Below, in pieces: positions 4,919 to 22,201 of a stretch of 64,000 nt of DNA (its first letter is position 1; the number at the start of each line of letters is the position of its first letter). Origin of the DNA: Deltaproteobacteria bacterium. Lineage in GTDB: Bacteria; Myxococcota_A; Polyangia; Fen-1088. The notes beneath the pieces were generated by a model. That model was not told the DNA's origin. It worked only from the letters and a program-made list of their open reading frames with translations, and searched no databases. A program made the position numbers and the translations under genes. The DNA lies in assembly GCA_033763315.1 (NCBI GenBank), contig JANRKS010000011.1:64001-128000 (forward strand). Direction: 5' to 3'.

Positions 4919-4932
4919 CAAGGCGCCGGGCC

Positions 4933-6018: not shown

Positions 6019-6067
6019 CCAGCGGGGACCGCTTCATAACAGCCACTCAATCGAAAAGGACAATCGC

Positions 6068-6799: not shown

Positions 6800-6816
6800 C
6801 GGATCCAGGACGAATC

Positions 6817-7902
6817 ATGCCACTTCAATTTCATTGGCAGATCCCCACGCGGGGCGACGGACGGTACGGCAACGCTCAACCGGTTCGTCGCGGCGAGCGT
6901 ACGCCGGGGCAGGGCTCTCCCTATTCCCCCGGCGTCACAGATCCACGCGGTGACCGCTTTAACTTCTTCGATCACGTCCACCAAGTGGCGCGTGCCACGG
7001 AGCTTTCGGGTTTCGATGCCGCGGTGGTAAGGCACGATGTGGCCGGCGACGAATCGTGGATTGTGGCCGGTTACGTGGCGCGGGGCACGCGGCGGTTAAA
7101 GCTCATCACCGAGTTCGAGGCTTCCTGGGGATCCTCGGTGTATGCCGCGAAAAACGCGGTCAGTTTCTCGCGCTTTACCGGTGGGCGCTTCGGCTGGCAG
7201 CTTGTGCCGGGAGCGGGTGCGGCCACGCGTTTGTTGTGGGGTGATCCGCTGGAGGAGGGCGACGTGCTGCCACGCATTGCCGAGTTTTTAACTGTCTCGC
7301 GTGGCGTGATTGCGGGTTCGCCGTTCTCTTTCAAGGGCCGCTTTTTCGAGGTCAAAGATGGTGGCTTCACCGGGAGCTTGGGCGACCATGCAGCGCCCAC
7401 AGTCTTTTTAGTGGGCGAGTCGGAAGCCGCTCTTTCTCTTTCGGCTGAGCACGCGGATGTGCACGTATTCGAGGCGTCTTCGTTGTCTGCACTTCGCGGA
7501 CATATTCATAGCTTGCGCGTATTGGCAAAGCGGCATGGTCGTGAAGTGAAAGCGGCGGTGCGCGTAGACGTGCTCGGTCGAGAGACCGAGAGCGAGGCTT
7601 TGTTCGACGCCAACCGCTACGCCGCCCAAAGCGGCAACCAAAATGCTCCCCGGACGACCGCGGGTTTGTGGACGGGGCTGGGCACCGACGTCACGGGCGC
7701 GGCGGCCACGCTGGTGGGCAGCTACACCCAAGTGGCGCAGCGGCTCAGTGAATACGTTGAGGCCGGTGTGGAGGTGTTTCAACTGGCCGGCGTGCCGCAC
7801 TTGGAAGAAGCGTTTCGCGTCGGCGCACACATACTGCCGCTTGTCCGCGAGCGCGCAAAATCATCCGTTTCACAACCCGCAAGCCCAAGGACGTTGTCAT
7901 GA
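6817..7902 (+). CDS. LLM-class flavin-dependent oxidoreductase (divergent SsuD-like)
   Basis: FHWQIPTRGDG, ELSGFD, LVGSYxQVA, PHLEEAFRVG. Confidence 0.85.
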   Translation: MPLQFHWQIPTRGDGRYGNAQPVRRGERTPGQGSPYSPGVTDPRGDRFNFFDHVHQVARATELSGFDAAVVRHDVAGDESWIVAGYVARGTRRLKLITEFEASWGSSVYAAKNAVSFSRFTGGRFGWQLVPGAGAATRLLWGDPLEEGDVLPRIAEFLTVSRGVIAGSPFSFKGRFFEVKDGGFTGSLGDHAAPTVFLVGESEAALSLSAEHADVHVFEASSLSALRGHIHSLRVLAKRHGREVKAAVRVDVLGRETESEALFDANRYAAQSGNQNAPRTTAGLWTGLGTDVTGAAATLVGSYTQVAQRLSEYVEAGVEVFQLAGVPHLEEAFRVGAHILPLVRERAKSSVSQPASPRTLS

Positions 7903-9026
7903 GCATTGATGTATTCTGGCGCTTGCCCACGCACGGCGAACCCGCCGAAGTGCGCAGCGCGGTTCCTTATCGCGGCGATGAATTTCCCGGCCTAGAGGCC
8001 CACTGGTATAGCTATATCGATTACCTGGCTGAGATCGCTCACGCGGCTGAAATCTCGGGCTTTCAAGGCGGTTTGATTCCGTCGTTTCCGATGACCGACG
8101 AGCCGTGGGTGATCTCATCCGTCTTGGCACGCGAAACAAAAACCTTTCGCTTCATGATTCCGTTTCAACCTGGGTTCTTGAACCCCGTGACGGCAGCGCG
8201 CATGACGGCAAGCTTGCAGCGGGCCACACGAGGCCGCGCGCTTTACAACGTCATCACCGGCGGCGGCGGGCCTTCGCAGCTGTGGTGGGGCGATGCTACG
8301 GGCCACGACGACCGCTACGGACGCACCACTGAATTTTTGGATGTGGTGCGCGGCGTATGGAAGGGGGGACCTTTCACATACGAGGGCAAGTTCTACAAAA
8401 CCAAGGACGCAGGGTTGCCTCACCCGCTATCTGAAGAAGAGTTTCCCGAGATCTACTTCTCTGGCTCCTCCGATGCCGCGCTGACTTCAGCGTCAAAGCA
8501 CGCTGATTTTTACCTTACATGGCTTGAGCCCTTCGCGGCCCTACTCGAAAAATTTGGCCGCGTACGCGAGAAAACCGCCGCTGCGGGCCGTCAGATTCGC
8601 TGCGCCGTTCGCGTCGACATCATCGCGCGCCCCACAGAAGAAGAAGCGTGGCGCGAGATCGAACGGGGCTTCAACGGCGTTGAGAAAAGCGCCCTTGAAC
8701 GTTTCCTAAAAGCGCCGCAACCGGGGGATAGCGTGGGGGCCAACCGCCAGCGTGCGGGGCGTCCGCAAGTTGTGAACGGCTACAAGGATCTCATCATCGA
8801 ACCCAACGTGTGGTCAGGTTTCAACCTGCTGCGGGGCGGGCAAACGCAAGGGATCGTGGGCAGCTACGAAAACGTCGCCGAGCGCTTGGACGATTTGGTG
8901 AAGCTCGGTGCAGACGCATTCATCCTCGCAAGCACGCCTCATCTTGAAGAGGCCTACCGGGTCGGCGAGGAAGTGTTGCCGCTTGTGCGCGGGCACGAGG
9001 CATCCACGCTCAAGGCCGTGGGCTGA
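7899..9026 (+). CDS. LLM-class flavin-dependent monooxygenase, SsuD/MsuD-like
   Basis: VFWRLPTHG, YFSGSS, IVGSYENVA, PHLEEAYRVGEEVLP; ATGA coupling to the upstream gene. Confidence 0.9.
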   Translation: MSIDVFWRLPTHGEPAEVRSAVPYRGDEFPGLEAHWYSYIDYLAEIAHAAEISGFQGGLIPSFPMTDEPWVISSVLARETKTFRFMIPFQPGFLNPVTAARMTASLQRATRGRALYNVITGGGGPSQLWWGDATGHDDRYGRTTEFLDVVRGVWKGGPFTYEGKFYKTKDAGLPHPLSEEEFPEIYFSGSSDAALTSASKHADFYLTWLEPFAALLEKFGRVREKTAAAGRQIRCAVRVDIIARPTEEEAWREIERGFNGVEKSALERFLKAPQPGDSVGANRQRAGRPQVVNGYKDLIIEPNVWSGFNLLRGGQTQGIVGSYENVAERLDDLVKLGADAFILASTPHLEEAYRVGEEVLPLVRGHEASTLKAVG

Positions 9027-9097: not shown

Positions 9098-9418
9098 TCA
9101 GGCGGCCGCCAGGGCTGTCTTGGATTCAAGACGACGACTGAGAAGATCCTTTAATTTGGAGACCCCCAGCTTCCGCAGCAGCACCACAGGCCTGCCGGCT
9201 TCCTTGGCCAGCTTCCGTGTCTGAATCACGGCGAAATGGCTGTTGACGTCGGTGACGATGACCAGCACATCGGACCGTTCAACCAGGTTTTTCAGCCGGT
9301 GGTACGCGGGCCCGCTGGCCACGCCTGCATGTACTTCCAGCTCGTGCCCAGCATCATGCGCCACGTGGCGCAGCCGCTCCTCTAATCGATCCAATCCTCC
9401 AACGATACCGATATGCAT
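9098..9418 (-). CDS. DUF2325-like small protein (106 aa)
   Basis: MHIGIVGG...SDVLVIVTDVNSH...AKEAGRPVV; the ORF-track extension to 10021 is an antisense shadow. Confidence 0.8.
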   Translation of the reverse strand: MHIGIVGGLDRLEERLRHVAHDAGHELEVHAGVASGPAYHRLKNLVERSDVLVIVTDVNSHFAVIQTRKLAKEAGRPVVLLRKLGVSKLKDLLSRRLESKTALAAA

Positions 9419-9491: not shown

Positions 9492-9519
9492 CTAGACACA
9501 ATGTCTAGTTTAGCAGACA
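9492..9519. promoter_or_regulatory. Overlapping inverted repeats upstream of the sfnR-like gene, putative operator
   Basis: CTAGACA-CAA-TGTCTAG (9492-9508) and TGTCTAGTTTAGCAGACA (9502-9519). Confidence 0.55.
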
Positions 9520-9530
9520 AGTGCAGCGCC

Positions 9531-10610
9531 ATGACAATTTTAACTCTCCCCAACGCCGAAGGCCGCTCGCTGACGGTACGCGCCAAGGCGCTGGTATTCG
9601 AAGACGAGCGCTCCCGCGCTTTGTTGCGCCGCCTTGAGCAGGTGGCGCCGAGCCACGCCACTGTCCTCGTGATCGGCGAGACCGGCACGGGTAAAGAAAT
9701 TGTGGCTCGCCACATCCACGAGTTGTCACCACGCGCCAGGGGGCCGTTTGTTGCCGTCAATTGCGGCGCTTTCAGCGAAACGCTGGTCGAAAGCGAGTTG
9801 TTCGGCCATGAAAAAGGCTCCTTCACGGGCGCCGTCAACACCAAGCAGGGCTGGTTTGAGGCCGCGGATGGGGGCACGCTGTTCCTCGATGAGATCGGCG
9901 ATCTTCCCGCCGCCGTGCAAGTGAAGCTGCTGCGCGTGTTGCAAGAGCGGGAGGTGGTGCGCGTGGGATCGCGCCAACCCATTCCGATCAACGTGCGTCT
10001 CGTTGCGGCCACCAACGTCAAGCTTGAACAGGCCGTCGCCGAGGGGCGTTTCCGCGAAGACTTGTATTACCGCTTGCGCGTTGCTGTCCTCGAGTTGCCC
10101 TCCCTGCGGGAACGGCCTGGCGACATCTTGCCGCTCGCTCGTTTTTTTCTAGAGCAGTACCGTCACCGTTTGGGCATCGCCGAGGTGAAAGTAACGCGCG
10201 AGGGTGAACGTCGGCTGTTGGCGCATAGCTGGCCTGGCAACATTCGCGAACTTGAAAACGTGATCCATTCCGCGCTTCTCGTGTGCCACGAAGGCTTGCT
10301 CGACGCGAAGGATCTGAACATCGGCACGGCCATCAGCCGTGAGGTCCCTACCGTTGGCAAAGAAACCAACCCCATCGAAAAGTTGGAAGCGGCGCTCTTG
10401 GCTTTGTTTGATGAAAACCCGCCCGAGCTGCACGCGAAGATTGAAGAGACGGTGATGCGCGTCGCGTTCGATTACTGCCACCGCAACCAACTGCAGACGG
10501 CACGGCTGCTTGGCATAAGCCGCAACATCGTGCGCGCGCGCTTGATCCAAATCGGCGAGCTGGCCGGCGTGTTGCGAGGCAGTGGTTCTGTGGAAGTGGC
10601 GGAGGACTGA
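9531..10610 (+). CDS. sfnR: Sigma54-dependent activator without sensor domain, SfnR-like
   Basis: GETGTGKE, ELFGHEKGSFTGA, FLDEIG, WPGNIREL, C-terminal HTH; the short LTLP...VFED N-terminus recalls Pseudomonas SfnR. Confidence 0.85.
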   Translation: MTILTLPNAEGRSLTVRAKALVFEDERSRALLRRLEQVAPSHATVLVIGETGTGKEIVARHIHELSPRARGPFVAVNCGAFSETLVESELFGHEKGSFTGAVNTKQGWFEAADGGTLFLDEIGDLPAAVQVKLLRVLQEREVVRVGSRQPIPINVRLVAATNVKLEQAVAEGRFREDLYYRLRVAVLELPSLRERPGDILPLARFFLEQYRHRLGIAEVKVTREGERRLLAHSWPGNIRELENVIHSALLVCHEGLLDAKDLNIGTAISREVPTVGKETNPIEKLEAALLALFDENPPELHAKIEETVMRVAFDYCHRNQLQTARLLGISRNIVRARLIQIGELAGVLRGSGSVEVAED

Positions 10611-10647: not shown

Positions 10648-11352
10648 TTAGCCTGCGTCTTCGTTGTATGAGATCACGAGGTAGACGAGTGCCGGAAGCA
10701 AGCCCGGATTGCGGAATCGATGTGTCTCGTCTGAGTGAAACAAAAGCGCGTCCCCTTCGCCCAGCGTGAATGTTGCGGCACCAACATCAACATCAAGCGT
10801 GCCACGCACCACGATCAAGTTGTTGGTGGTTCCGAGCGGATGCGACAGCGGTTGGTCCTGGGCCTTGGGCGCCAGTTCCATCTCGTGAAACTCAACTTTG
10901 CGTGGCTCATCCGTCGGAAAGAGGGGGCGGGACACGAAGCTGCCATCCGCGTTTGTAAGGCGTTTGGCTTGCGAGGCGCGCAACACCACGGGGCCCGTAC
11001 GCTCCTGCGTGCTGACGAGCGTGGAGAAACTGATGTCGAGCGCGCGCGCCACTTTCCACAGCAGTGAGATCGTGGGCGTGCTTTGGCCGAGCTCAATCTG
11101 CGAAAGCATCGCGCGGCTCACGCCAGAGCGTTGCGCCAGGCGCTCAAGCGAAAGCCCCCGTCGCAGGCGCAGGCGGCGCAGGTTCACGCCAACAGCGATC
11201 GTGAGTTCTCGCCCCTCTTCGGCCAGCGCGACCCTGGCGTCGGGGCGCTGGCGGCCTCTGGGAGACGATCCGCTGCGGGCGCGTGGGTCCGAAGACAGTG
11301 CATCGCGGTTCACAGACGGGTCATCGCTGGCTTGGGATTTGGAAGAAATCAC
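10648..11352 (-). CDS. XRE-family HTH + cupin regulator (SutR/PuuR-like)
   Basis: LSLERLAQRSGVSRAMLSQIELGQSTPTI HTH followed by a cupin domain; start uncertain. Confidence 0.9.
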   Translation of the reverse strand: MISSKSQASDDPSVNRDALSSDPRARSGSSPRGRQRPDARVALAEEGRELTIAVGVNLRRLRLRRGLSLERLAQRSGVSRAMLSQIELGQSTPTISLLWKVARALDISFSTLVSTQERTGPVVLRASQAKRLTNADGSFVSRPLFPTDEPRKVEFHEMELAPKAQDQPLSHPLGTTNNLIVVRGTLDVDVGAATFTLGEGDALLFHSDETHRFRNPGLLPALVYLVISYNEDAG

Positions 11353-11474: not shown

Positions 11475-11521
11475 TGCTGCTCCAGCAGCAGCCGAGAAGC
11501 AATGGTGCTGCCTTGGCAGCA
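11475..11521. promoter_or_regulatory. Pair of perfect TGCTGC-N4-GCAGCA palindromes, putative bEBP enhancer
   Basis: 11475-11490 and 11506-11521, 31 bp apart, about 65-110 bp upstream of a sigma54 promoter. Confidence 0.7.
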
Positions 11522-11586
11522 GCGTACGCCGGCGCTAGCACCAGCAACCACGGCACTCATTAGATGTATGGCGAATATCGTGCCGA

Positions 11587-11602
11587 TGGCGTGCTTCCTG
11601 CA
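11587..11602 (+). promoter_or_regulatory. Sigma54 -24/-12 promoter of the uptake operon
   Basis: TGGCGTGCTTCCTGCA, GG-N10-GC. Confidence 0.72.
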
Positions 11603-11703
11603 TTCGGCTGGTCGTGGGCGCATGTATGTCAACGTCTGCCCCTTGGGTGCGCACCCTGGAAAAATGTTTCAGCGACAACGATTCGGTCTTGAAAGAAGGA
11701 ATA

Positions 11704-12900
11704 ATGTCTACTATAACGAACAATATGAAAGGTCGCCACAGCGCGCGGGGCCCAAGCCTCCGGAATCGAATGATGGCCAAGTTAGGCGCCGTTGGTGCCG
11801 CGTCGGTTCTTTCGTTGGGTATCTCGGCTCAAGCAGGAGCCGTTGAGTGCAACGCCGTTGAGCCGGCTTTGGTGAACCCGATCTACGGCTTGGGTGGCAG
11901 CGCCACGCGGCCCTACATCAAAGAGCTGGCCACAGTGCTGGCGAACCAAACGCCTGCCGTCACCGTGCTCTACAACGACTCGGGTGGCGCTTGCACAGGG
12001 CCTTACGCTCTGATTCAAGGCGACAAAGCCTCGGGCTCTTTCCGCTACTGGGACAAGACGGGCAAAGAGTCCACGTGCACCTGGACCGCTGGCAGCGCCT
12101 CAGCGCCACCCGTTGCGTTCGCCAACATGGGTAACTCGATCGGTTTGTGCAAGACCAACGGGCAGGCCACTGTGCTCCCCCAGACGATTGCCGACGTGGA
12201 AGGTCCTGTGGTGGGCGTGAGCGTGATCGTGCCCAAAGCGAGCTCGGAGAACAGCATCAGCACCGAGGCTGCTTACTTTGTCTTTGGGTTTGGCAAAGCG
12301 GGGCAGGTCTCTCCGTGGCTCGATGACAATCTTATCATCCGCCGGAATGAGAATTCATTCGTGCAACTGTTCTTGGCCAAGGCAACAGGCGTTCCAGAGA
12401 CGAAGTTTAAAGGCATCGACGCGAAGACAAACCAGGCGTCGATTCAGTTGGTCAAGGACGCCGCCACCCCCAACGCAGCGATTGGCTTTGCCAGCTCCGA
12501 TGTTGCCGACGACAACCGCGCCTCCGTTAAGACGCTGGCCTACCAACACATAGGTCAAAGCTGCGGTTATCTGCCGGATTCGTCTAACACAGCGTTTGAT
12601 CGCAAGAACATCCGCGATGGCCACTACTACTTGTGGACCGCCCAACACTACTTCGCTTTCAAAGGCGCCACCGCGGGCACCTACGCTGATCCCAACGTTG
12701 AGAAGTTTTTGGGCCTGGCCACCGGCAAGGCCGTTCCACAGGGGGTTGATTGGATCAACCTCGTAAAGAAGTCGGGCGAAGTTCCTCGGTGCGCGATGAA
12801 AGTGTGGCGCGATGGCGACTTGGGCGAGCTTTACTCGTACCAAGATCCAAGCCCCTGCAGCGCTGCCTATGACGCGGCCCCAGGCAAAGTGGTGCAGTAA
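11704..12900 (+). CDS. Secreted PstS/PBP2-like solute-binding protein, Cys-containing
   Basis: Signal peptide ending AQAGA; IYGLGGSATRP anion-binding-like N-terminal motif; NAAIGF; NIRDGHYYLW. Start could be 11704, 11725 or 11770. Confidence 0.65.
   Translation: MSTITNNMKGRHSARGPSLRNRMMAKLGAVGAASVLSLGISAQAGAVECNAVEPALVNPIYGLGGSATRPYIKELATVLANQTPAVTVLYNDSGGACTGPYALIQGDKASGSFRYWDKTGKESTCTWTAGSASAPPVAFANMGNSIGLCKTNGQATVLPQTIADVEGPVVGVSVIVPKASSENSISTEAAYFVFGFGKAGQVSPWLDDNLIIRRNENSFVQLFLAKATGVPETKFKGIDAKTNQASIQLVKDAATPNAAIGFASSDVADDNRASVKTLAYQHIGQSCGYLPDSSNTAFDRKNIRDGHYYLWTAQHYFAFKGATAGTYADPNVEKFLGLATGKAVPQGVDWINLVKKSGEVPRCAMKVWRDGDLGELYSYQDPSPCSAAYDAAPGKVVQ
11705..11722. promoter_or_regulatory. 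18-bp TGT-N12-ACA box, putative XRE-cupin operator
   Basis: TGTCTACTATAACGAACA; 13/18 identical to 9502-9519; AT-rich in a GC-rich context. Confidence 0.45.
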
Positions 12901-12930
12901 GCGCCGTTCATCAACTGGAAGAACACGACG

Positions 12931-13308
12931 ATGAAAACGAATCTTTCTGCATTAAAAATTGTTGGCTTTTTGGCCGTGACATCTGCTCTTGGGGGCCTGG
13001 CCCTGGTGGCCTGCTCCGATAGCGACAACCCCACACCAACGGATGGCGGCACGATAGACGGTGGCATCATTGTCATCGACACGGGCACGCCGAAAGACGC
13101 GCCTCCCGCCGCTGACACCTTGGTGCCAGACGCCTCGGGGGACACAAGCGGCGACACCAGTGGCGGTTTCGTGAATGGCTGCTGGGTAGGTCCGGCAACG
13201 AATAGCAACCAAGCCTTAAACGCTTGCACCGACGGCACCTGCACACCCTTCAACAACGTGCAGCGCTTGCCGCTTTACAACAACGGAAACCTCCCCGCCG
13301 TGCCCTAA
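12931..13308 (+). CDS. Small lipoprotein, unknown function
   Basis: Lipobox LVAC, D/G/T-rich linker, C-terminal 3-Cys module (LNACT..CTPFNN). Confidence 0.8.
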   Translation: MKTNLSALKIVGFLAVTSALGGLALVACSDSDNPTPTDGGTIDGGIIVIDTGTPKDAPPAADTLVPDASGDTSGDTSGGFVNGCWVGPATNSNQALNACTDGTCTPFNNVQRLPLYNNGNLPAVP

Positions 13309-13329
13309 CAAAAAACGCTAGCCAAGTGC

Positions 13330-13370
13330 AAAGCCCTTGGCGACATACGCCAAGGGCTTTTTGTTTTCTT
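13330..13370 (+). terminator. Intrinsic terminator / intra-operon attenuating hairpin
   Basis: AAAGCCCTTGGCG-ACATA-CGCCAAGGGCTTT followed by a T-rich tract. Confidence 0.85.
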
Positions 13371-13389
13371 ATTTTTCTCACCCCGCTCA

Positions 13390-14997
13390 TTGAGGCATCG
13401 CTTGTTCAAGGTAAATAAATTTGCCGCCACCGCATTGTTGGCGATCTTGCCCCACAGTGTGGCGTTGGCCCAAGCCAAAGGCGCGCGTCCGGCGGCGCCC
13501 GCGAAAGCGGCCAAGGCCGACGCGGCCAGCGACGAACTCGAGGTGCCGGCGGGCGCGGCGCCCTCGTTGGACGCGCAACTCGCGGAGGAGAAGCGCAGCC
13601 GCGAAGCCGCGGTGGCGGATGTGGCCGCGCAGCTCGCCGCGCAGAAGCAGGCGCTTGAAAGCCGCTTGGCCGAAGCGCAAGCCAAAGCGGCGGCGAATGA
13701 GGCAAAGCTGCAAGCCTTATCGGATGCGATGCAAGCTGAACGCGCGCAGCGCGCGGCCACACCCGCCCCACCGCCCCCCGTATGGCAAGGCGGACCCATC
13801 AGCGATGTCGAGGGCTACTTGCCCCTGCCCCAAGCGGAGGGCTTGGTTGTGCGCGGCTTTTTGCAGGCGCAGTACGAACACTTCGCGGGGTCTGAAGATC
13901 AATTGCAGCAAGGCGGGCGTTATCTAAACGAAGATCGTTTCACCGTTCGCCGGGCCCGCGTGCGCTTGGATCGCCGCTGGCAGTATTCGGCCATCAGCGT
14001 TGAGTTGGATGGCAACACCACGCGACGTTTGTCGTTCGGTTTGCGGCGCGCCGAAGGCAGTTTGTTTTGGGAAGGGAAGGGCGCCTCAAGGCCGCTGCTG
14101 GCGCTCAGCGCCGGTTTGATCGATGTGCCGTTCGGGTTTGAATTGCCGCAATCCGCGCGGCAACGTTTGTTCGCTGAACGGTCGGTGGTTTCGGAGGCGT
14201 TCTTTCCTGGACAGCCCGACCTCGGCGCACGCCTGACAGGCCGCTGGCGCGTGTTCAACCTTGCGGTTGCTGTCGTCAACGGCGAGCCTGTGGACGAACG
14301 CGAAAGCGCGCCCTTCCGCGGCGATCCCAACCAGGCCAAAGACGTCGTAGGCCGCGTGTCGGTGGATGCGCCTGTGTCGCCCGCCTTCACGATTGCCGGT
14401 GGCGCTTCGTTCCTCAGTGGCAAGGGCTTTCACCCGGGCACCGACGCGACGAAGTCCGGGACGCAATGGAACGACGTCAATCAAAATAGCTTGATCGATC
14501 TCGGCGAAATCACACCCGTGGCCGGCACCTCGGCTGTGCCCTCCGAAAACTTCAAACGTTGGGCGTTGGGGGCCGATCTGCACAGCTCGCTGCGCACAGG
14601 ATACGGTTACACGCGCCTGTTTGCCGAAGCCGTGGTGGGCAGCAACATGGATCGCGGCTTGTTTGTGGCGGATCCCATCGCCAACAGCTTCGATGTGCGT
14701 GAGTTCGGCTACGCGGTGTCGCTTACGCAGGATTTGAAGAACCTCGGCATCTTGGGTGTGCGGCTGGACAGCTACAACCCCAACGCTGATTTCTTTGACA
14801 GCCGCAGTGGCAAATTGGTGCCCACGAGGCAAACCATCACAACGGTGTCGCCGGTGGTGGGCGTCAATGTTGGCGCGCACGCTCGGTTGAGTGCGCAATA
14901 CGATTTCATTCGTGACAAGTACGCGCGCGACGATCGCGGTGTGCCCACGGATTTCTCAAACAACCGCTTCACGCTTCGTTTGCAGGTGGATCTATGA
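13390..14997 (+). CDS. OprO/OprP-like anion porin with N-terminal coiled coil
   Basis: Signal peptide, Ala/Glu-rich coil, FTVRRARVRL, DVPFGFE...AERS, C-terminal strand FTLRLQVDL. Confidence 0.75.
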   Translation: MRHRLFKVNKFAATALLAILPHSVALAQAKGARPAAPAKAAKADAASDELEVPAGAAPSLDAQLAEEKRSREAAVADVAAQLAAQKQALESRLAEAQAKAAANEAKLQALSDAMQAERAQRAATPAPPPPVWQGGPISDVEGYLPLPQAEGLVVRGFLQAQYEHFAGSEDQLQQGGRYLNEDRFTVRRARVRLDRRWQYSAISVELDGNTTRRLSFGLRRAEGSLFWEGKGASRPLLALSAGLIDVPFGFELPQSARQRLFAERSVVSEAFFPGQPDLGARLTGRWRVFNLAVAVVNGEPVDERESAPFRGDPNQAKDVVGRVSVDAPVSPAFTIAGGASFLSGKGFHPGTDATKSGTQWNDVNQNSLIDLGEITPVAGTSAVPSENFKRWALGADLHSSLRTGYGYTRLFAEAVVGSNMDRGLFVADPIANSFDVREFGYAVSLTQDLKNLGILGVRLDSYNPNADFFDSRSGKLVPTRQTITTVSPVVGVNVGAHARLSAQYDFIRDKYARDDRGVPTDFSNNRFTLRLQVDL

Positions 14998-15968
14998 AAC
15001 GGTCACTCTTCGTTGTGACGGTGCTCGGCTTTGCCGCGTGCGGTGGCGTGGAATCGGGCTCAGGCCTCGATCAGCCGCTCGTATTGCACCCGGCAAGTCC
15101 CAAGTTGCCAGTGCCTGTCTTCAAAGAAGGCCCGCTGCCAGGCACACCGCCGAAGGCGGTGGTCAGCGACGCTGAACCGCTGCGCATCACCGGGTTCGAA
15201 GATACGTCGGGCCTGGGCTTCGTCGGCGAATCGGGCCGCTCGCTCGCAGGGCGGGCCAGCCCCGATGCGGTCGCGGTGGCGTTGACGCTGGCCAATCAAG
15301 GCACGGGGTATTGGTTGTTGCCCGTCGCCGGTCCCGATCCCACCAGCAACAATGAACTGACGTGGAAGGTGTTGTTGGATGTCACCGATGTGGCCATCGC
15401 TGGTCCCGGTAAGATTCGCGTCGTCGCGATCGGTGCCGATGGCAGCGCCGGCACGCAGACGGATGCGTCGTTCTGCGTAGGCAGTGCCGTGCCCGACAAC
15501 TTGAACTCGTGCAACCCAAGCGTGGCGCCGCCCGCCGCGGTTATCTCTTTGAATTGGGACACGGCTGCCGACTTGGATCTGGTGGTGATCACGCCCACGG
15601 GCCAAGTGGTGAGCCCCAAATCGCCCAACACAGCCGGCAAAGGTGCCAGCGCCGAACAGATCGCCGCGGGAGGCGTGTTGGATTTGGACGCGCAAGCCGG
15701 GTGCCGCTTCTTCGGTCGCCGCCGCGAGAACCTCGTGTTTCAAAAGCCACCGCAACCAGGCCTTTACAACTTCTACGTCAATGTCTTTGACGGCTGCCGG
15801 GCCAGCCAAGCGCACTACGGCTTGGGTGTGTACACCCCGCAAGCCACAGGCCCGGGCACAAGCCGCGTGGTGGAACAGCAAATCATCCGCGGCCAAGTGC
15901 TTACGGCCACGGCCAATGGCGGCGCAGGCAAAGCGCCCGGACTCTTTGTCGGCTCGTTCGTTTTCTAG
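14994..15968 (+). CDS. Lipoprotein with YfaP/DUF2135-like domain
   Basis: Lipobox FAAC; ISLNWDTAADLDLVVITPTG...LDLD...EN motif. Confidence 0.7.
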   Translation: MKRSLFVVTVLGFAACGGVESGSGLDQPLVLHPASPKLPVPVFKEGPLPGTPPKAVVSDAEPLRITGFEDTSGLGFVGESGRSLAGRASPDAVAVALTLANQGTGYWLLPVAGPDPTSNNELTWKVLLDVTDVAIAGPGKIRVVAIGADGSAGTQTDASFCVGSAVPDNLNSCNPSVAPPAAVISLNWDTAADLDLVVITPTGQVVSPKSPNTAGKGASAEQIAAGGVLDLDAQAGCRFFGRRRENLVFQKPPQPGLYNFYVNVFDGCRASQAHYGLGVYTPQATGPGTSRVVEQQIIRGQVLTATANGGAGKAPGLFVGSFVF

Positions 15969-15986
15969 GTTGGAAGGAACATCGTC

Positions 15987-16718
15987 ATGATCGATAAACT
16001 CTTACAAATTGCACTGCTCGGCAGCACGTGGGTGCTGTACCTCCTCTTGTTCTTGTCGGTGGTTTCGATCGCCGCGATGGTCGAGCGCTGGTGGTTCTTC
16101 CGCGTTCACAGCGACGACGGCGAAGCGTTGCGTGGACGCATTTCCAAAGCGCTTCTGGCAGGCAAGTGGAGCGAAGCCGAAGCCGCTTTTGCCGCCAGTC
16201 GTGGTTTGCCTGCGAAGATCATCTCGCCCGCGCTCGCCTGGCGCGACGGCGGCGCGGAAGCCGTCACCGACGCCGTCGACAGCGAGCTGGGGCGCGTGCG
16301 CAAGCAGCTTGAGCGCGGCGCCTCGCTGTTAGGCACGCTCGGCAACAACGCGCCGTTTATCGGTCTCTTCGGAACCGTCTTAGGTGTTATCGAAGCGTTC
16401 CATCATCTTGGCGAAGGCGCTTCTAAATCAGCGATGAGCAACGTCATGAGCGGCATCGCTGAAGCGTTGGTGGCCACGGGCGTGGGCATCTTCGTGGCTT
16501 TGCCCGCCGTTGTGGCGTTCAACTTGATTCAAAAGCGCATCGGCGAGGTGGAAGCCGAGACAACGTCGCTGTCGAAGTTGGTGACCGCCTACCTCAAGAA
16601 GGCGCAGCGTGAAGGCGTGGTGATCCCCGCGTCGCACGCGGTCGCCGTTGAGCCGAACGCGCAGGCCGCGGCTGAAACCAACAACCCCGGCAACGCGCGC
16701 GTTGCTTTGGCTGATTAG
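15987..16718 (+). CDS. exbB: MotA/TolQ/ExbB proton channel
   Basis: APFIGLFGTVLG and GIAEALVATGVG motifs. Confidence 0.9.
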   Translation: MIDKLLQIALLGSTWVLYLLLFLSVVSIAAMVERWWFFRVHSDDGEALRGRISKALLAGKWSEAEAAFAASRGLPAKIISPALAWRDGGAEAVTDAVDSELGRVRKQLERGASLLGTLGNNAPFIGLFGTVLGVIEAFHHLGEGASKSAMSNVMSGIAEALVATGVGIFVALPAVVAFNLIQKRIGEVEAETTSLSKLVTAYLKKAQREGVVIPASHAVAVEPNAQAAAETNNPGNARVALAD

Positions 16719-16726
16719 GACGTCAC

Positions 16727-17128
16727 ATGGCTGGTACAAACGCAGGCCGCGGCCCGATCGTTGGCATCAACGTCACCCCTATGGTTGACGTCGTGTTGGT
16801 GTTGTTGGTCATCATGATGGTGTCGGCCACATACATTGTGGCGCAGAGCCTCAAGGTGGAATTGCCGAAGTCGTCCACGTCGGACGAATCCACGCCCACG
16901 CTGGCGGTTGTGACCATCACCAAAGAGAAGACGCTGCTGTTCAACGAGCAGCCTGTCACCGAGAACGATCTCAAACAAAAGCTGGAAGGCGTATACGCCA
17001 AAGACAACGATGTGAGTTTGGTGGTCAGCGCCGATCAAGAGGCGTATCACGGCAACGTCGTGCACGTGATCGATTTGGCCAAGCTGATTGGCATCACCAA
17101 GTTCGCGATCAACGTGGAACGCAACTAG
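16727..17128 (+). CDS. exbD: ExbD/TolR
   Basis: INVTPMVDVVLVLLVIMMV; VSAD..AYHG.V..VID. Confidence 0.92.
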   Translation: MAGTNAGRGPIVGINVTPMVDVVLVLLVIMMVSATYIVAQSLKVELPKSSTSDESTPTLAVVTITKEKTLLFNEQPVTENDLKQKLEGVYAKDNDVSLVVSADQEAYHGNVVHVIDLAKLIGITKFAINVERN

Positions 17129-17142
17129 CGGCCGGTTCATTC

Positions 17143-17826
17143 GTGCGTATCTCGATCATCATCTACGGCGTGAGCCTGGGGCTGCACGCGGCGCTCGCGG
17201 CCTCGGTCGTGTCGCTCAAGCCTGCGGTCAAAAAGCGGCCGCCCACGGCGATCGCGATACGCGAGGTCAAGCGCAAGCCCGCCACGCCGCCGCCCGAGCC
17301 ACCGCCGCCTGAGGCACCCAAAGCCGAGCCACCGCCGCGCAAGGCGCCTCCTGTGGCCCGCGCCGCGACGCCCCCCCCGGCCGCCGCGCCCGCCGCTGCG
17401 CCTGTGGCGGCCGTTCCTGATTTTGGTTTGGCGCTGGGCGGAGGCGTGGGCGCGGGCCTCGCGGTGCCACCCCCACGCGAGGGGACAACTCACGAGCCCA
17501 CACAAGCCAAGCCCAAAGTGCTGGAAGCCGCGCCGGCACAAGGCGGGTGCAACGAAGATCCTGTGAAACCCAAGCCCGTGAACATCGTTCAACCTTCGTA
17601 TGCCAGCGAAGAAGCGCGCGCCGCGGGTATCGAAGGCAAAGTTCGCATTGAAATCACCGTGGGCGTGGACGGCACGGTCAAGAACGCCAAGTTGATCTCG
17701 GGCCTCGGGTACGGCCTGGACGAAGCCGCGCTTGAAGCCGCACGCGCTTCCACGTTCGAGCCGGGCACGCGGTGCGGGCAGCCGTCTGAGACCACGTTCA
17801 CCATGGGCATCCGCTTTTCGCTTTAA
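17143..17826 (+). CDS. tonB: TonB energy transducer
   Basis: N-terminal TM with SxxLH, Pro-rich linker, TonB_C domain (ARAAGIEGKV...LDEAALEA). Confidence 0.88.
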   Translation: MRISIIIYGVSLGLHAALAASVVSLKPAVKKRPPTAIAIREVKRKPATPPPEPPPPEAPKAEPPPRKAPPVARAATPPPAAAPAAAPVAAVPDFGLALGGGVGAGLAVPPPREGTTHEPTQAKPKVLEAAPAQGGCNEDPVKPKPVNIVQPSYASEEARAAGIEGKVRIEITVGVDGTVKNAKLISGLGYGLDEAALEAARASTFEPGTRCGQPSETTFTMGIRFSL

Positions 17827-17833
17827 CCAGTCA

Positions 17834-20572
17834 ATGAAATTTTCCCACCGCCTACAGTCACTTGTGTGGCTGCTGATCTTCTCTTCGGGTGCGTCTGTTG
17901 TGGCGCCACAACGCGCGCGCGCCGCCGATGAGGCACCAGCCCCGCCGGCGCCGAAGCTGACCAAGCCTCCGGCTTTGCTCACGTTTGTTGAAGCCGTTTA
18001 TCCCGAGGAAGAAAAAGCCGCGAACCGCAGCGCTTCGGTTGTGTTGCAAGTGGTGATCGGCGCCGATGGCAAAGTCACGGAAGCCACAGTCTCGCAATCG
18101 GCTGGGGCGGCCTTTGACGCTGCGGCGCTGGCTGCCGTGAAAGCGTTCGTGTTCAGTCCGGCGGAGATCGATGGCGTGCCGTCGCCCATCCGCATTCTTT
18201 ATAAGTACGACTTCGTGCTCAAGGCCGCCGTCAAAACCACGGCTGATCTTTCGGGCATCGTTCGCAACCGCAAAACCAAGAAGCCCTTGCCCAATGTGGC
18301 TGTCACGGTGGGACAGGCCAAGACCACCACAGGGCCCGATGGGCGTTTCGAGGTGTTGGATGTGCCGCCCGGAAAAGTGGCGGTCGCGTTTGCGGGGCCC
18401 GGAATCACGGCGTCACGGACGGAAGAAACGCTTGAAGCCGGTAAGAAGACGGACGTCATCTATGACGTGTCACCAGAAGAGGTGGTGGATCCCGCCGACA
18501 AAGACGATCTGGAAATCGTCGTCATCGCGCCGCCCTTGCAAAAGGCCGTGGCGTCGATCCAAATCGCGGCCGATCAAGGGCGCAAACTTCCGGGCACACA
18601 AGGCGACGTGTTGAAGGTCGTTGAAAGTTTGCCGGGCGTGGCGCGCTCGTCGGCGGGCTCGGGCCAACTGGTGGTGTGGGGTGCCTCGCCGCAAGACACG
18701 CGCGTTTACATCGATGGCGTCCGCATCCCCGCCCTTTACCACACAAGCGGTTTGCGTTCGGTGGTGGCCGGCGAATTGGTGAAGAACATCGAACTTGTGC
18801 CGGGCGGCTATGGCGCTTCCTATGGCCGCGGCTTGGGTGGCATCGTGCTTGTGGAAAGCGCTGCTCTAGAGGGCAATGGAACACACGGCGCGGCCACCGT
18901 TGATTTGCTGGACGCCGCGGCCACCGTGCGCACGCCCTTGTCTTCAAAGTGGCGCCTCGCGCTTTCGGGCCGCTGGAGCTACCTCGACCGCGTGCTTGAA
19001 ACCGTCAGCGATGAAGACGTGGGTGCGTTTTATCCGATCCCGCGTTACCGCGATGGGCAAGTGCGTTTGGCGTATGTGCCGTCAAAGCGCGAGCAGATTG
19101 AATTTGTGAGCTTGGGCTCCAGTGACAAAGTCACGCGCACCGTGCAAAGCCCTGACCCGGCACTCACCAAGCGCGATGATCGCGACACGAACTTTTACCG
19201 TTTCTACATGCGGTATAGCCGCGATCTCGACGATGGCGCCCGCGTCTCGGTTGTGCCGTTCTTTGGCCAAGATCGCACGCGTCTGCAAAACCAGTACGGC
19301 GGACCCGTGGCGACACTGGACACCACGTCCACCATCTATGGCTTTCGCGGCAATTGGCGCGCACGTGTGGCGCAACTGCTAACCGTTACGTTGGGCTTGG
19401 ACGCCGAAGTTGTGCAGGCGGCGGTGTCACGTACGGGATCACCCACCTTGCCGCCGCGCGAAGGTGATTTGCGCGTGTTCGGCCAATTGGCTCCAAACGA
19501 GCTCAATTCCGATACGTGGAACGCTTTTGTGGCCAGCGCCGCGCCTTACGCCGAGCTTGACATCACGCCGCTTGGCGACCGTCTGCATATTATCCCCGGC
19601 ATTCGTGTGGAACCTTATGTGGTCGGCGCCAGCCGGCAAACCCCGCGCGTGGGCGATACACCATCGATTGGTTTGCTCACGCAAGACACCACGGTGCAAC
19701 CGCGTCTGACCGCGCGTTTCGATGCGACGAAGTGGATTACCTTTTCAGCCTCTTACGGCCAGTATCGACAGGCTCCCCAGGCCGAAGATCTTTCGGCCGT
19801 GTTTGGCAACCCACGCCTTACCCTTTCGGAAGCCCGCCACCTGGTGTTTGGCGCAAACATCCGCTTGGGCGAAAAGCTTTCCGCAGAACTGACAGCGTTT
19901 CGCTCCGACAGCCACAACCTAGCCGTGCGCAGCCCGCGCGAACAGCCCTTCTCAGGTGAGGCGTTGTTGCCGCTTGGCAAAGGCAAGACGGTTGGTGGCC
20001 AAGTGCTGCTCAAACAAACGTTCTCCAAAAGCTTGTTTGGCTGGGTCAGTTACAGCCTGTTGCGTTCACAGCGCATCGATCCGGTGGCCAGCGATCAGTG
20101 CAGCGATCCCGCACTGCCCTTGGCCGACTGCCGCTTTCCCAACAGCACGGTGTTCAGCTATACGGTCAACCGCACCCGCTTGTTTGACTACGATCAAACG
20201 CATCTGCTTACCGCCTTGGCGTCATGGGACATCGGCCGCGGTTTCAACTTGGGCGCGCGCTTTCGCTATGCCACGGGGTACCCACGAACGCCGGTTGTCG
20301 GATCGTTTTATGACGCGCGCCGCGACGCTGTGCAGCCGCTGTTTGGCGCACAAAACAGCATTCGCATCCCGGCCTTCTTGCAGGCCGACGTGCGGCTCGC
20401 GAAAACGCTGACGCTTGCGAAGGGCAGTGATTTGGAGCTGTACCTCGATGTGCAAAACATCACGAACCGGCAGAACGCCGAGGAAATTGCATACAGCCCT
20501 GATTACGCGCGCAAAGCTCGCATCACAGGGTTACCCCTTTTGCCCGTGGTTGGCGCGAGGCTCACATGGTGA
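17834..20572 (+). CDS. TonB-dependent receptor with N-terminal TonB_C and carboxypeptidase-regulatory-like domains
   Basis: YPEEE...FDAAALAAV TonB_C; plug motifs LPGV and GGYGASYGRGLGG; LYLDVQNITN; C-terminal W. Confidence 0.88.
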   Translation: MKFSHRLQSLVWLLIFSSGASVVAPQRARAADEAPAPPAPKLTKPPALLTFVEAVYPEEEKAANRSASVVLQVVIGADGKVTEATVSQSAGAAFDAAALAAVKAFVFSPAEIDGVPSPIRILYKYDFVLKAAVKTTADLSGIVRNRKTKKPLPNVAVTVGQAKTTTGPDGRFEVLDVPPGKVAVAFAGPGITASRTEETLEAGKKTDVIYDVSPEEVVDPADKDDLEIVVIAPPLQKAVASIQIAADQGRKLPGTQGDVLKVVESLPGVARSSAGSGQLVVWGASPQDTRVYIDGVRIPALYHTSGLRSVVAGELVKNIELVPGGYGASYGRGLGGIVLVESAALEGNGTHGAATVDLLDAAATVRTPLSSKWRLALSGRWSYLDRVLETVSDEDVGAFYPIPRYRDGQVRLAYVPSKREQIEFVSLGSSDKVTRTVQSPDPALTKRDDRDTNFYRFYMRYSRDLDDGARVSVVPFFGQDRTRLQNQYGGPVATLDTTSTIYGFRGNWRARVAQLLTVTLGLDAEVVQAAVSRTGSPTLPPREGDLRVFGQLAPNELNSDTWNAFVASAAPYAELDITPLGDRLHIIPGIRVEPYVVGASRQTPRVGDTPSIGLLTQDTTVQPRLTARFDATKWITFSASYGQYRQAPQAEDLSAVFGNPRLTLSEARHLVFGANIRLGEKLSAELTAFRSDSHNLAVRSPREQPFSGEALLPLGKGKTVGGQVLLKQTFSKSLFGWVSYSLLRSQRIDPVASDQCSDPALPLADCRFPNSTVFSYTVNRTRLFDYDQTHLLTALASWDIGRGFNLGARFRYATGYPRTPVVGSFYDARRDAVQPLFGAQNSIRIPAFLQADVRLAKTLTLAKGSDLELYLDVQNITNRQNAEEIAYSPDYARKARITGLPLLPVVGARLTW

Positions 20573-21615
20573 AACGTATCGGCTTGGCTTTGCTTTTGGT
20601 GTCCGCGTGCGTGCCTGATCTCGAGGATACGTCGGCGTTGGTGTCGGGCCCGCGCTTGTTGGCCGTGGCGATGGATCCACCGGAGGCACCCGCGGGGGCG
20701 CAGGTCACGTGGCGTGCGCTTGACGTTACCCCCGAAGGCCCGGCGGCGCGACCGATTGATTGGGCGCTTTGCCAGGTGCGCAAGCCCGTCAGTGAAGCGG
20801 GCCCCATCAACCCCACGTGCTTGGTCGCCCTCGGGTCCGCGACGTTGTCTCCTCTGGGCACGGGGCCTGTGGTTACAGGCCGCTTGCCCAGCAACGCGTG
20901 CCAAGTGTTTGGTCCCGAAACGCCGTCGCCAAAGCCCGGCGAGCCACAAGCGCGTGAAGTGGATCCCGATAGCACGGGGGGCTTTTATCAGCCGTTGCGC
21001 CTTCGCTTGGGTGACACCGAAAGCTACGGTACGTACGACGCGCGTGTGCGTTGCGCCTTGAACAATGTGAACCCGCAACAAGCCAACGAGCTGCAATCGC
21101 GCAGCCATCCCAACACCAATCCCATTCTCACCAACTTCGCCGTTGTGAACGAAGATGGTTCGGCGATCACGCTCGTGCCCACCGAAGTGGCTGACGAGGC
21201 GAGGGCATTGATCCCCGCAGGCCAGCCGCTTCGCTTTCGCGCCACCTGGGGCGCGTGCCCGGCCGTGGACGCGTGCGGTGATGGCTTTTGCGGCATCAGC
21301 GAAACGGTTGGTAAGTGCGCTGCTGATTGCCAGAACCCCAAGCCGTGCGGCGGTGCCGAGCCTTACCTGTGGTTCAACCCAGCCACGCGCGAACTTGTGC
21401 AACGCAAAGAGGTGATGCGCGCTTCGTGGTTCGCGAACGCCGGCACATTCGCAACGGGACGCACAGGTCGTAGCGAGGATGAGGCCGCCCTCACGAACAC
21501 GGAAAACACATGGACCCCACCTGCGGCACCCGGCACGGTGGCGCGGTTGTGGATCGTCTTGCGTGACGACCGCGGTGGGGCCACATGGCAGTCTTTCGTG
21601 TTCGAGTTACGTTAA
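20566..21615 (+). CDS. Cys-rich lipoprotein downstream of the TBDT
   Basis: Lipobox VSAC; PRLLAV..DPPEA; CGDGFC module; WIVLRDDRGG. Confidence 0.8.
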   Translation: MVKRIGLALLLVSACVPDLEDTSALVSGPRLLAVAMDPPEAPAGAQVTWRALDVTPEGPAARPIDWALCQVRKPVSEAGPINPTCLVALGSATLSPLGTGPVVTGRLPSNACQVFGPETPSPKPGEPQAREVDPDSTGGFYQPLRLRLGDTESYGTYDARVRCALNNVNPQQANELQSRSHPNTNPILTNFAVVNEDGSAITLVPTEVADEARALIPAGQPLRFRATWGACPAVDACGDGFCGISETVGKCAADCQNPKPCGGAEPYLWFNPATRELVQRKEVMRASWFANAGTFATGRTGRSEDEAALTNTENTWTPPAAPGTVARLWIVLRDDRGGATWQSFVFELR

Positions 21616-21624: not shown

Positions 21625-22038
21625 TTAGGATGCGGCGGTCCACTCACCCTTCAGGGCCGTACACTGCTTTTGCGCGGTTGTGGCCGTGGCCGTGGCGTCT
21701 TTGCCGTAATACAGGTTGTTGACTTCCTTGTCGGTGCCTTTGCCGATCACGCACGTGCCAACCCAATCCGCCTTTGGACACGCATTGGCGCTGAATGTGG
21801 TTTCGCCCAGCGTCTTGCACATCGGTTCCACTGTGGCGGCAGTGAAACTTGCACCTATGAACTCCTTGCAGAAGCCGCCCTTTGAATTGTCGCAGCTGCC
21901 TATGACCTTGGCCGCGCCACTGGCGCCACCGCCGCCGGTGCCCCCGGTGCCATCGCTGTTGCTGTCGCTGCCACCGCAAGCTGCCGCCGCGCCCACGGCC
22001 AAAGTGATACAAAATACTAAGCCAATACGTTCAAACAT
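21625..22038 (-). CDS. Small Cys-rich lipoprotein
   Basis: AAAC lipobox, Gly linker, six further Cys; GGAGG RBS. Confidence 0.8.
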   Translation of the reverse strand: MFERIGLVFCITLAVGAAAACGGSDSNSDGTGGTGGGGASGAAKVIGSCDNSKGGFCKEFIGASFTAATVEPMCKTLGETTFSANACPKADWVGTCVIGKGTDKEVNNLYYGKDATATATTAQKQCTALKGEWTAAS

Positions 22039-22201
22039 CACTGCCTCCTGGCGAAGAGTAAAACGCCACCTTAGCACTAACCTTGGCGGGTTCTGTCAAA
22101 AACAACACACTCAACGTGACTGGTTTTACGCCAACCCGTTGATCTTCGTCGGCCGCTCGTCTAGGAGTAGGGCAGTCAATCTTCAGTGAGGAGCGGGGTA
22201 T

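Follow-up and report, generated by a model that had tools for sequence, protein, structure and literature searches.

A conserved nine-gene operon of polyangial myxobacteria as a candidate outer-membrane uptake system linked to sulfur limitation

Introduction

Little is known of how Gram-negative bacteria bring scarce sulfur through the outer membrane; in textbooks, sulfur uptake begins with the periplasmic proteins Sbp/CysP or SsuA. Here we describe an operon of nine genes, g1 to g9, in a 64,000-nucleotide stretch of the genome of a Deltaproteobacteria bacterium (the window; bases 64001-128000 of contig 11 in a genome of 7.63 Mb and about 61% G+C). The operon encodes a secreted binding protein, an outer-membrane porin, three lipoproteins and a TonB-dependent transporter (TBDT) with its own ExbB, ExbD and TonB. 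An earlier reading, made from the sequence alone, had taken it for a sulfur capture system built from anion-binding folds. We examined this proposal by family and structure comparison, complex modelling, and analysis of control sites, neighbouring genes and amino acid composition.

Results

Gene content and conservation of the operon

The operon (11704-21615) consists of nine plus-strand genes, nowhere more than 81 bases apart; g3 and g4 overlap by 4 bases, and g8 and g9 by 7 bases.

11704-12900 (+): g1, secreted, very divergent PstS-superfamily binding protein, with conserved cysteines (AlphaFold2, Foldseek, hhalign)
12931-13308 (+): g2, small lipoprotein (lipobox LALVAC) with a low-complexity linker and a Cys-rich C-terminal module
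13390-14997 (+): g3, outer-membrane porin, distant relative of Porin_O_P (by homologue matches to PF07396)
14994-15968 (+): g4, lipoprotein (lipobox GFAAC), translationally coupled to the g3 porin
15987-16718 (+): g5, ExbB (Pfam, 3.5e-30)
16727-17128 (+): g6, ExbD (Pfam, 4e-28)
17143-17826 (+): g7, TonB (Pfam TonB_C, 7e-17)
17834-20572 (+): g8, TBDT (Pfam TonB_C-like, CarboxypepD_reg, Plug and barrel)
20566-21615 (+): g9, lipoprotein (lipobox LLVSAC), translationally coupled to g8, modelled as three beta-sandwich domains

Much of the sequence-only reading is confirmed at this level: the genes are co-oriented and tightly packed, the lipoboxes of g2, g4 and g9 account for its three lipoproteins, Pfam identifies a dedicated ExbB/ExbD/TonB/TBDT set in g5 to g8, and no inner-membrane ABC permease, nor an ABC ATPase, is encoded within the nine genes. 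No Pfam or NCBIfam model matches g1, g2, g3, g4 or g9 above threshold.

Relatives of g1 were sought by a protein search in 301 genomes of the phylum and, separately, by a pattern scan with one genome per species. They are present in 30 of the 301, this genome counted, and the pattern scan yielded 80 named loci. These belong to Chondromyces apiculatus, Minicystis rosea (which has two copies), Sorangium and Polyangium, and to Sandaracinaceae, Nannocystaceae, Kofleriaceae and Labilithrix bins. After removal of duplicates (L074 = L039, L076 = L038; loci are cited by such numbers throughout), 98 g1 loci were kept, 56 of them with at least 9 kb of downstream sequence. The genes g1, g3, g4, g8 and g9 occur in identical order and orientation in 39 of these 56; the remaining loci are 15 stand-alone g1 paralogues and 2 partial clusters. 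ExbB, ExbD and TonB genes accompany the core in 32 of the 39 loci and are all three absent in 6, while g2, through its conserved C-terminal part, is detectable in 13. The cluster is thus a conserved unit in polyangial myxobacteria. This genome holds a second full cluster on contig 2 (about 186500-195500; L046), an old paralogue whose g1 is 28-30% identical; it has neither the boxes described below nor sulfur neighbours, and 17 kb upstream there is a canonical PstS gene.

The PstS-like binding protein g1

The g1 protein has a Sec-type signal peptide without a lipobox. A search of 5.8 billion proteins returned 127 relatives, 120 of them listed; those with an organism name come almost all from Polyangiaceae, Labilithrix, Kofleriaceae or 'Myxococcales' bins, and no Pfam domain is recorded for the relatives. 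No database match underlies the 'PstS fold' of g1, as Pfam finds nothing above threshold in the protein: the family cut-off of PBP_like_2 (PF12849) is not reached, and a profile of 35 homologues meets solved PstS chains only at E values of about 1. The AlphaFold2 model, built from an alignment of 35 members, is confident, with a predicted local distance difference test (pLDDT) of 89.5 and a predicted template modelling score (pTM) of 0.84. Its top Foldseek matches are all PstS (E 5e-13 to 1e-8; template modelling (TM) score by target 0.59-0.81), ModA structures appearing only from rank 40. Profile-profile comparison with the three canonical PstS proteins encoded elsewhere in the genome gave an hhalign probability of 89.5% (E 2e-6, 242 columns). 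The secreted PstS-fold protein that had been proposed from sequence is upheld by these comparisons.

The phosphate ligands of PstS we take to be a lobe-1 Ser/Thr, the Ser of a 'GSG' loop, an acidic or Ser-Arg position, and a lobe-2 Arg with Ser-Gly-Thr. In hhalign and HMMER alignments, g1 retains the lobe-2 Arg (R214) and Ser (S218) and one lobe-1 Ser. In the GSG loop, Ala stands in place of the Ser and precedes an invariant Cys97, and a conserved Tyr-Trp of g1 aligns with Ser-Arg of this genome's PstS. Model, structural matches, profile alignment and altered residues together indicate that g1 genuinely belongs to the PstS superfamily, though it is very divergent and has what appears to be a remodelled site. 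Most g1 homologues carry an extra Cys-rich C-terminal tail of about 40 residues; the window's g1 is without the tail, and the separate small Cys-rich lipoprotein g2 is found instead.

PstS and Porin_O_P are the nearest named families of g1 and g3, and 6 of the 120 listed g1 homologues bear the Joint Genome Institute (JGI) label 'ABC-type phosphate transport system substrate-binding protein'. The operon could accordingly be a Pho-type outer-membrane system for scavenging phosphorus, in which g1 binds phosphate or a phosphorus compound, the porin admits it and the TBDT takes a larger phosphorus source. The apparent changes in g1 at the phosphate-binding positions of PstS and the presence of three canonical PstS proteins elsewhere argue against this, as do the control sites that the operon has in common with sulfonate genes and the low sulfur content of its main proteins (both below), and we regard phosphorus scavenging as unlikely.

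The porin g3 and the lipoprotein g4

The g3 protein comprises a signal peptide, an Ala/Gln/Glu-rich coiled-coil stretch that forms an N-terminal stalk, and a C-terminal barrel part, and many Arg residues are invariant across its alignment. Its earlier description as an OprP/O-like anion porin is less secure than the PstS fold of g1: 15 of 34 aligned homologues match Porin_O_P (PF07396) at E ≤0.1 (best 1.1e-5), but the window's own g3 has no match. The coupled lipoprotein g4 is all-beta, and its atlas model weakly resembles DUF2135/YfaP (TM 0.4-0.5). The sequences of g1 and g3 had no useful match among solved structures, and profiles of g3, g4 and g9 matched these at chance level only.

A predicted lipoprotein lid on the TBDT

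In g8, an N-terminal TonB_C-like domain (1.7e-15) and a CarboxypepD_reg domain precede the plug (Plug, 6.5e-9) and the barrel (TonB_dep_Rec_b-barrel, 5.2e-19), the latter two both above cut-offs. The adjoining lipoprotein g9 gave a confident all-beta model of three beta-sandwich domains (pLDDT 88.6, pTM 0.87). Foldseek and VIA-align returned generic beta-sandwich or Ig-like matches for it, with Z scores of at most 7.7, within the stated background, and the protein atlas placed g9 in unnamed myxobacterial clusters only. A likeness to SoxYZ (Z 6.7) was no better than unrelated matches and was not used.

Since the g8 and g9 genes overlap and always occur together, this pair was chosen for complex modelling. 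A TBDT/lipoprotein prediction was among the checks proposed with the sequence-only reading. The plug and barrel of g8 (residues 246-912) and residues 22-349 of g9 were modelled in three runs, alongside three controls. The interaction prediction score from aligned errors (ipSAE) was 0.86, 0.86 and 0.85, compared with 0.00 for the best control; partner pLDDT was at least 82, and the runs share at least 80% of contacts. Of 157 solved complexes, 116 attain the ipSAE mark used, compared with 2 of 215 mismatched pairs; this benchmark holds only roughly for self-supplied alignments.

The g8 residues in contact with g9 (439-445, 532-561, 604-608, 699-710, 825-837 and 889-890) form segments spaced by about 50 residues, all outside the plug, the last of them about 22 residues before the g8 C-terminus. 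Because the C-terminus of a TBDT barrel is periplasmic, this spacing fits the extracellular loops of g8. The model suggests that g9 sits as a lid on the outer face of the barrel, over these loops. Where the sequence-only reading had allowed for a surface-exposed binding protein, the modelling thus points to g9 and not to g1.

Control sites and a 35 kb sulfur island

The region upstream of g1 contains the following features, listed with those of the neighbouring genes.

11475-11490 and 11506-11521 (+): two perfect TGCTGC-N4-GCAGCA palindromes (boxes), 31 bases apart, presumed activator sites
11587-11602 (+): sigma-54-type -24/-12 element TGGCGTGCTTCCTGCA, by GG/GC spacing, 102 bases before the g1 ATG
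4825-4840 and 4857-4872 (+): imperfect box pair with 2 and 1 mismatches, spacing 32
4903-4918 (+): sigma-54-type -24/-12 element TGGCACGGCCGATGCA, 15 bases before the ATG at 4933
4933-9026 (+): sulfonate-type operon encoding an SsuA-family binding protein, a class II aldolase-like protein and two luciferase-like monooxygenases
2046-4752: SsuABC-like genes
9501-10610 (+): short sigma-54 activator of 369 residues, with an AAA+ core, a C-terminal helix-turn-helix (HTH) and no sensor domain
9098-9418 (-): DUF2325 protein of 106 residues (65.7 bits, cut-off 33.6), divergent from the activator gene
10648-11352 (-): regulator with an XRE-type HTH and a cupin domain, divergent from the operon

The two perfect palindromes reported earlier are present as described. 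The further claim that the same pair precedes the organosulfur genes (4825-4872) holds in part: a pair does stand there before a sigma-54-type motif, but it is imperfect and spaced by 32 rather than 31 bases. Perfect boxes number 8 in the whole genome, and distinct close box pairs (at most 3 mismatches in all) number four, two of them in the window. Box and sigma-54-type motif are combined at only three places genome-wide, all within 17 kb, and at each the box or boxes stand 31-84 bases before a TGGC-N8-TGC element directed into an operon. Two of these operons are the ssu-like operon and g1-g9. At the third place, a perfect box 5 kb upstream of the window is separated by 84 bases from TGGCACGGTCCCTGC (minus strand; contig 11 position 58878). 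This element stands at the start of an operon that encodes TonB, ExbB and ExbD together with two fused ABC proteins and a pyridoxal phosphate (PLP) enzyme of Cys/Met metabolism. The three operons, the SsuABC-like genes and a TBDT gene just upstream of the window make up a sulfur island of 35 kb.

The open frame of the activator starts at 9243, yet the ATG was taken as 9501: the 86 codons before it appear to be non-coding and overlap the DUF2325 gene. NCBIfam gave it generic activator matches below cut-off. That the boxes serve the XRE-cupin regulator is less likely, as all three lie at enhancer distance from sigma-54-type motifs and only one lies near the XRE gene. The monooxygenases of the sulfonate-type operon match alkanesulfonate monooxygenase best, below curated cut-offs.

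Among the relatives, a sigma-54 consensus (TGGCAC-N5-xTGCx) precedes g1 in L032, L037, L042, L056, L067, L071, L075, L080 and L085, which is 9 of 11 regions inspected, these having been preselected for a motif or activator gene already seen. Short activator genes adjoin the cluster in L032 and L037. Palindromes of the form CCGTG...CACGG, probably the sites of those lineages' activators, lie upstream of sigma-54-type promoters in L032 (7713-7728), L037 (7689-7706), L079 (6604-6638) and L085 (9921-9951). A DUF2325 gene stands directly upstream of the cluster in six relatives (L039 7430-7810, L081 9583-9906, L088 9414-9806, L090 8866-9195, L100 9463-9789 and L111 9533-9856), and its product may be a regulatory partner.

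Sulfur genes beside related clusters

At 40 related cluster loci, the genes to either side were annotated over about 5.5 kb (235 proteins in total), and key proteins were checked with NCBIfam. Sulfur-metabolism genes adjoin the cluster in 14 of the 40.

L037: cysP, cysT, cysW and cysA (all above NCBIfam cut-offs), followed by the short activator gene, the sigma-54 motif and g1-g9
L081, L100: sulfate-binding protein gene directly downstream of the cluster
L032: cystathionine gamma-synthase (535 bits, cut-off 513) and the short activator
L033: encapsulin of the SrpI type, with a cysteine desulfurase as its cargo (863 bits, cut-off 800)
L068: CysK-like gene beside an encapsulin of the SrpI type
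L034, L035, L071, L087: cysteine-dioxygenase-like proteins (fusions), some with YeeE/DUF6691-like membrane proteins
L088, L090: YeeE-like (L088), HTS-like, Rrf2 regulator
L047, L050: PLP enzymes of the D-cysteine-desulfhydrase/CuyA family (below cut-off), with MetK in L050

On a rough estimate from general gene frequencies, chance would yield about one sulfur-linked locus per 40. No sulfur genes were found at 9 loci of stand-alone g1 paralogues (53 proteins), which served as a control. TauD-family neighbours in L071, L072 and L033 were considered as taurine dioxygenases, and this assignment was dropped. The SrpI encapsulin of Synechococcus is inducible by sulfur starvation (PMC8049743).

Neither pst nor phoU genes occur at any of the 40 annotated loci or in the window's operon, and clear pho genes are likewise absent from the 40, which argues further against phosphorus scavenging. 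The flanks also bear on the possibility that the operon takes up another oxyanion or a metal complex (molybdate or tungstate, selenate, or iron for Fe-S supply) and that the sulfur genes are bystanders. Metal chelates are the classic cargo of TBDTs, and ModA is found among the structural matches of g1. In L088, L090 and L100 the cluster is followed by Rrf2-family regulators whose best match, below cut-off, is IscR; the cysteine desulfurase/encapsulin neighbours could serve Fe-S assembly; and a molybdopterin oxidoreductase gene lies near L035. Yet the cysPTWA, cystathionine synthase, cysteine-dioxygenase-like, YeeE-like and MetK neighbours are sulfur-specific, no Fur, siderophore or modBC genes were seen, and depletion of Met and Cys, as described next, is a mark of sulfur economy and not of metal limitation. 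We consider a role in uptake of another oxyanion or a metal quite improbable.

Methionine and cysteine content

Sulfur-poor proteins are a mark of sulfur-starvation regulons. The genome baseline of Met plus Cys, from 2292 long open reading frames, has a median of 2.87% and a 10th percentile of 1.52%. The TBDT g8 contains 1 Met and 2 Cys in 911 residues and the porin g3 contains 2 Met and no Cys in 535, in each case less than 0.4%. Similarly sparse are the first monooxygenase of the sulfonate-type operon (1 Met, no Cys, 368 residues) and the SsuA-like protein encoded at 4933 (the initiator Met only and 1 Cys in 361 residues). As the script subtracted one Met per protein, the percentages that it printed are slight underestimates for g3, g8 and the monooxygenase.

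When the 13 TBDTs of the genome were ranked, with residues counted from the first position of the Plug match up to the stop codon, g8 was second lowest at 0.45%. The lowest, with no Met or Cys in 700 residues, is encoded just upstream of the window (contig 11, 60858-63395; L132 16858-19395, minus strand) and adjoins the sigma-54-type operon for TonB-ExbBD, two ABC proteins and the Cys/Met enzyme that carries a perfect box. Nine other TBDTs have 0.95%-2.58%. Medians are 0.47% for 27 g8 orthologues and 0.98% for 38 g3 orthologues. The sulfur-poor mark is clear for the two barrels, g3 and g8, and absent for the soluble parts.

Two clades of g1

A quick maximum-likelihood tree of 98 g1 proteins, with branch support from the SH-like approximate likelihood ratio test and a midpoint root for drawing only, splits most deeply, with a support of 100, into groups of 54 and 44. 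The group of 54 contains the window's g1 and 13 of the 15 sulfur-linked rows, and neither a PhoB-like case nor a stand-alone paralogue. The other 44 include all 15 stand-alone paralogues, this genome's second copy, both PhoB-like cases, and L047 and L050, the two weakest sulfur cases. Annotated cluster loci with sulfur links number 12 of 31 on the window's side and 2 of 9 on the other, a difference too small to lean on.

The PhoB-like cases bear on phosphorus scavenging. L040 encodes a PhoB-like regulator (12397-13143; NCBIfam, 264.6 bits against a cut-off of 296.2), and L045 a PhoB/PhoR-like regulator and kinase (3745-7841; 188 and 168 bits, below cut-off); a purple acid phosphatase gene lies 4.4 kb from L040. 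These speak for a phosphorus role, but both are separated from the window's copy by the deepest split of the tree.

Stand-alone paralogues, for instance that of Sorangium cellulosum So0157-2, lie near position 10000 of each locus, and a Ser/Thr kinase gene adjoins them in 7 of 9 annotated loci (L107, L101, L105, L095, L112, L128 and L127). These kinases suggest a sensing role for the stand-alone branch, and one may ask whether the whole operon is a sensing or export device rather than an importer, with g1 reporting its ligand to signalling proteins or with g8 exporting a protein. In favour of such a device are the share of stand-alone paralogues (15 of 56 loci) and the CarboxypepD_reg, Plug and barrel layout of g8, which recalls Myxococcus Oar; Oar reportedly acts in protein secretion. 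Against it, the g1 tree separates every stand-alone paralogue from the window's copy, the cluster contains no conserved signalling gene, and a porin, a Ton motor and a lidded TBDT, kept in one order at 39 of 56 loci, have the anatomy of uptake; we think it very improbable. We read the window's clade as sulfur-linked; the sister clade may serve another anion or sensing.

Discussion

Proposed role in the sulfur-limitation response

The link to sulfur rather than phosphate comes from three independent, if indirect, lines: the control sites shared with sulfonate genes, the sulfur neighbours in relatives, and the Met/Cys-poor porin and TBDT. On these grounds we propose, with a probability of about 0.58, that the operon encodes an outer-membrane acquisition system within the cell's sulfur-limitation response. 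Its likely substrates would be either oxyanions of sulfur (sulfate, thiosulfate) or organosulfur anions (sulfonates, sulfate esters). The CysPTWA and YeeE-like neighbours point to sulfate or thiosulfate, and the window's sulfonate genes and the TBDT to organosulfur anions.

In the mechanism that we envisage, the sensor-less sigma-54 activator (9501-10610) would bind the paired TGCTGC-N4-GCAGCA boxes and switch on three operons from the nearby sigma-54-type promoters: that of the sulfonate monooxygenases, that of TonB-ExbBD, the ABC proteins and the Cys/Met enzyme, and g1-g9. The g3 porin, with its coupled lipoprotein g4, would allow passive entry of small anions, while g8, capped outside by g9 and powered by its own ExbB-ExbD-TonB, would import a scarcer or bulkier sulfur compound. 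In the periplasm, g1, perhaps held by g2, would bind the anionic substrate and hand it to inner-membrane transporters encoded elsewhere, SsuABC-like here and CysPTWA or YeeE-like in relatives.

Several observations weigh against a sulfur role, and some of them qualify the sequence-only reading. The sigma-54 box that it had placed at 11587-11602 does exist as TGGCGTGCTTCCTGCA, but the motif alone is not rarer than chance, with 11 found and 8.8 expected in the window. The window's box (at most 1 mismatch) occurs within 450 bases upstream of g1 at none of 80 related loci, and the exact boxes are lineage-specific; taken with the sigma-54 motif at nine loci, this points to sigma-54 control that recurs among the loci through an activator site that differs between lineages. 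The synteny comparison proposed earlier favours sulfur over pst/phoU adjacency (14 loci to none), but 26 of the 40 loci have no clear sulfur neighbour, 4 of them being ambiguous (L072, L039, L041 and L049), and the 'TauD' neighbours of L071 and L072, which NCBIfam places nearer butyrobetaine/TmpA-type dioxygenases, were not counted as sulfur genes. The ssu-like genes of the window fall below curated NCBIfam equivalog cut-offs. As to composition, g1, g2 and g9 are not depleted (2.7-3.7% Met plus Cys), because of conserved cysteines, and low sulfur content may be partly a family trait, since Met and Cys are likewise rather scarce (0.65%) in the paralogous TBDT of contig 2. The PhoB/PhoR-like regulators beside two sister-clade clusters belong here too, and small sulfur oxyanions are not expected to need a TBDT. 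Among public sequencing runs, none from RNA was found listed for this DNA. The earlier claim of sulfur rather than phosphate capture is supported in part, and indirectly, by shared sites, neighbours and composition, but not by conservation of the boxes.

A bolder version of the sulfur proposal, which we hold to be doubtful, would see in the operon an undescribed modular machine for scavenging oxyanions, in which a lidded TBDT and a lipoprotein-coupled porin feed a re-tooled PstS-fold carrier. It would be the first TonB-energised route for sulfate or thiosulfate or for small sulfonates, with an old sulfur clade and a sister clade of other, perhaps phosphate, specificity, both represented in one genome.

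Comparison with known systems

The closest parallel for g1 and g3 is the Pho regulon of Pseudomonas aeruginosa, in which PstS and OprP/OprO likewise pair a type II binder of the PstS superfamily with an anion-selective channel of Porin_O_P type. The operon described here differs in having no pstCAB or phoU, in a g1 that fails the PBP_like_2 model and has altered site residues, in the added lidded TBDT, private Ton motor and three lipoproteins, and in a context and control sites related to sulfur and not to Pho.

For the TBDT, the ats-sft sulfate-ester cluster of Pseudomonas putida S-313, compared here by description, offers a likeness in SftP, a TonB-dependent receptor for sulfur scavenging. 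We know of no report that this cluster holds a PstS-like protein, a porin or partner lipoproteins. The sftP receptor gene lies within the sulfate-ester cluster (PMC7711191), and SftP is a precedent for a TonB-dependent receptor of sulfate esters.

The control region has the anatomy of an SfnR-type regulon, with -24 GG/-12 GC motifs at 4903, 11587 and contig 11 position 58878, boxes upstream of them and an activator gene nearby. In the sfn and msu operons of Pseudomonas, a sigma-54 activator is reported to be encoded next to, and to control, genes for sulfonate or sulfone monooxygenases dependent on reduced flavin mononucleotide (FMNH2; PMC8234197). The window's activator, having generic NCBIfam matches only, is likened to SfnR by type and not by orthology.

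A TBDT gene with a coupled lipoprotein that is predicted over the extracellular loops recalls SusC-SusD, RagAB and BtuB-BtuG of Bacteroidota. Unlike these lids, g9 is a beta-sandwich protein, neither helical (TPR-like) as SusD nor a propeller, and it comes from a different phylum. The order of an energised outer-membrane step followed by a soluble binding protein is that of FhuA-FhuD-FhuBC type operons, whereas the operon here has no ABC permease or ATPase, its inner-membrane step being encoded elsewhere and varying between genomes. A description of this architecture was not found in the literature searched, whose coverage leaves out most subscription journals, in line with the earlier statement that no characterisation was known.

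If the proposal is true, soil myxobacteria equip the outer-membrane step of sulfur acquisition with a Ton motor of its own, a transporter under a lid and a porin for anions, and g9 represents a new type of TBDT-lipoprotein lid outside Bacteroidota. The PstS and OprP folds would have been re-used for another element, and 'phosphate' annotations of PstS-like and OprP-like genes in Myxococcota would for that reason be unsafe. The claim is directly testable, because the cultured strains Chondromyces apiculatus DSM 436 and Minicystis rosea DSM 24000 (L070 and L078) carry the same cluster clade as the window.

Other genes downstream of the operon

Directly after the operon and convergent with it lies a gene (21625-22077, minus strand) for a Gly-rich, Cys-containing lipoprotein of 150 residues that matches no family. 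Further downstream, genes with bpX2 and bpMoxR domains of a MoxR-vWA-beta-propeller ternary system (26156-30061, plus strand) adjoin a Ser/Thr kinase gene (24282-26021, minus strand).

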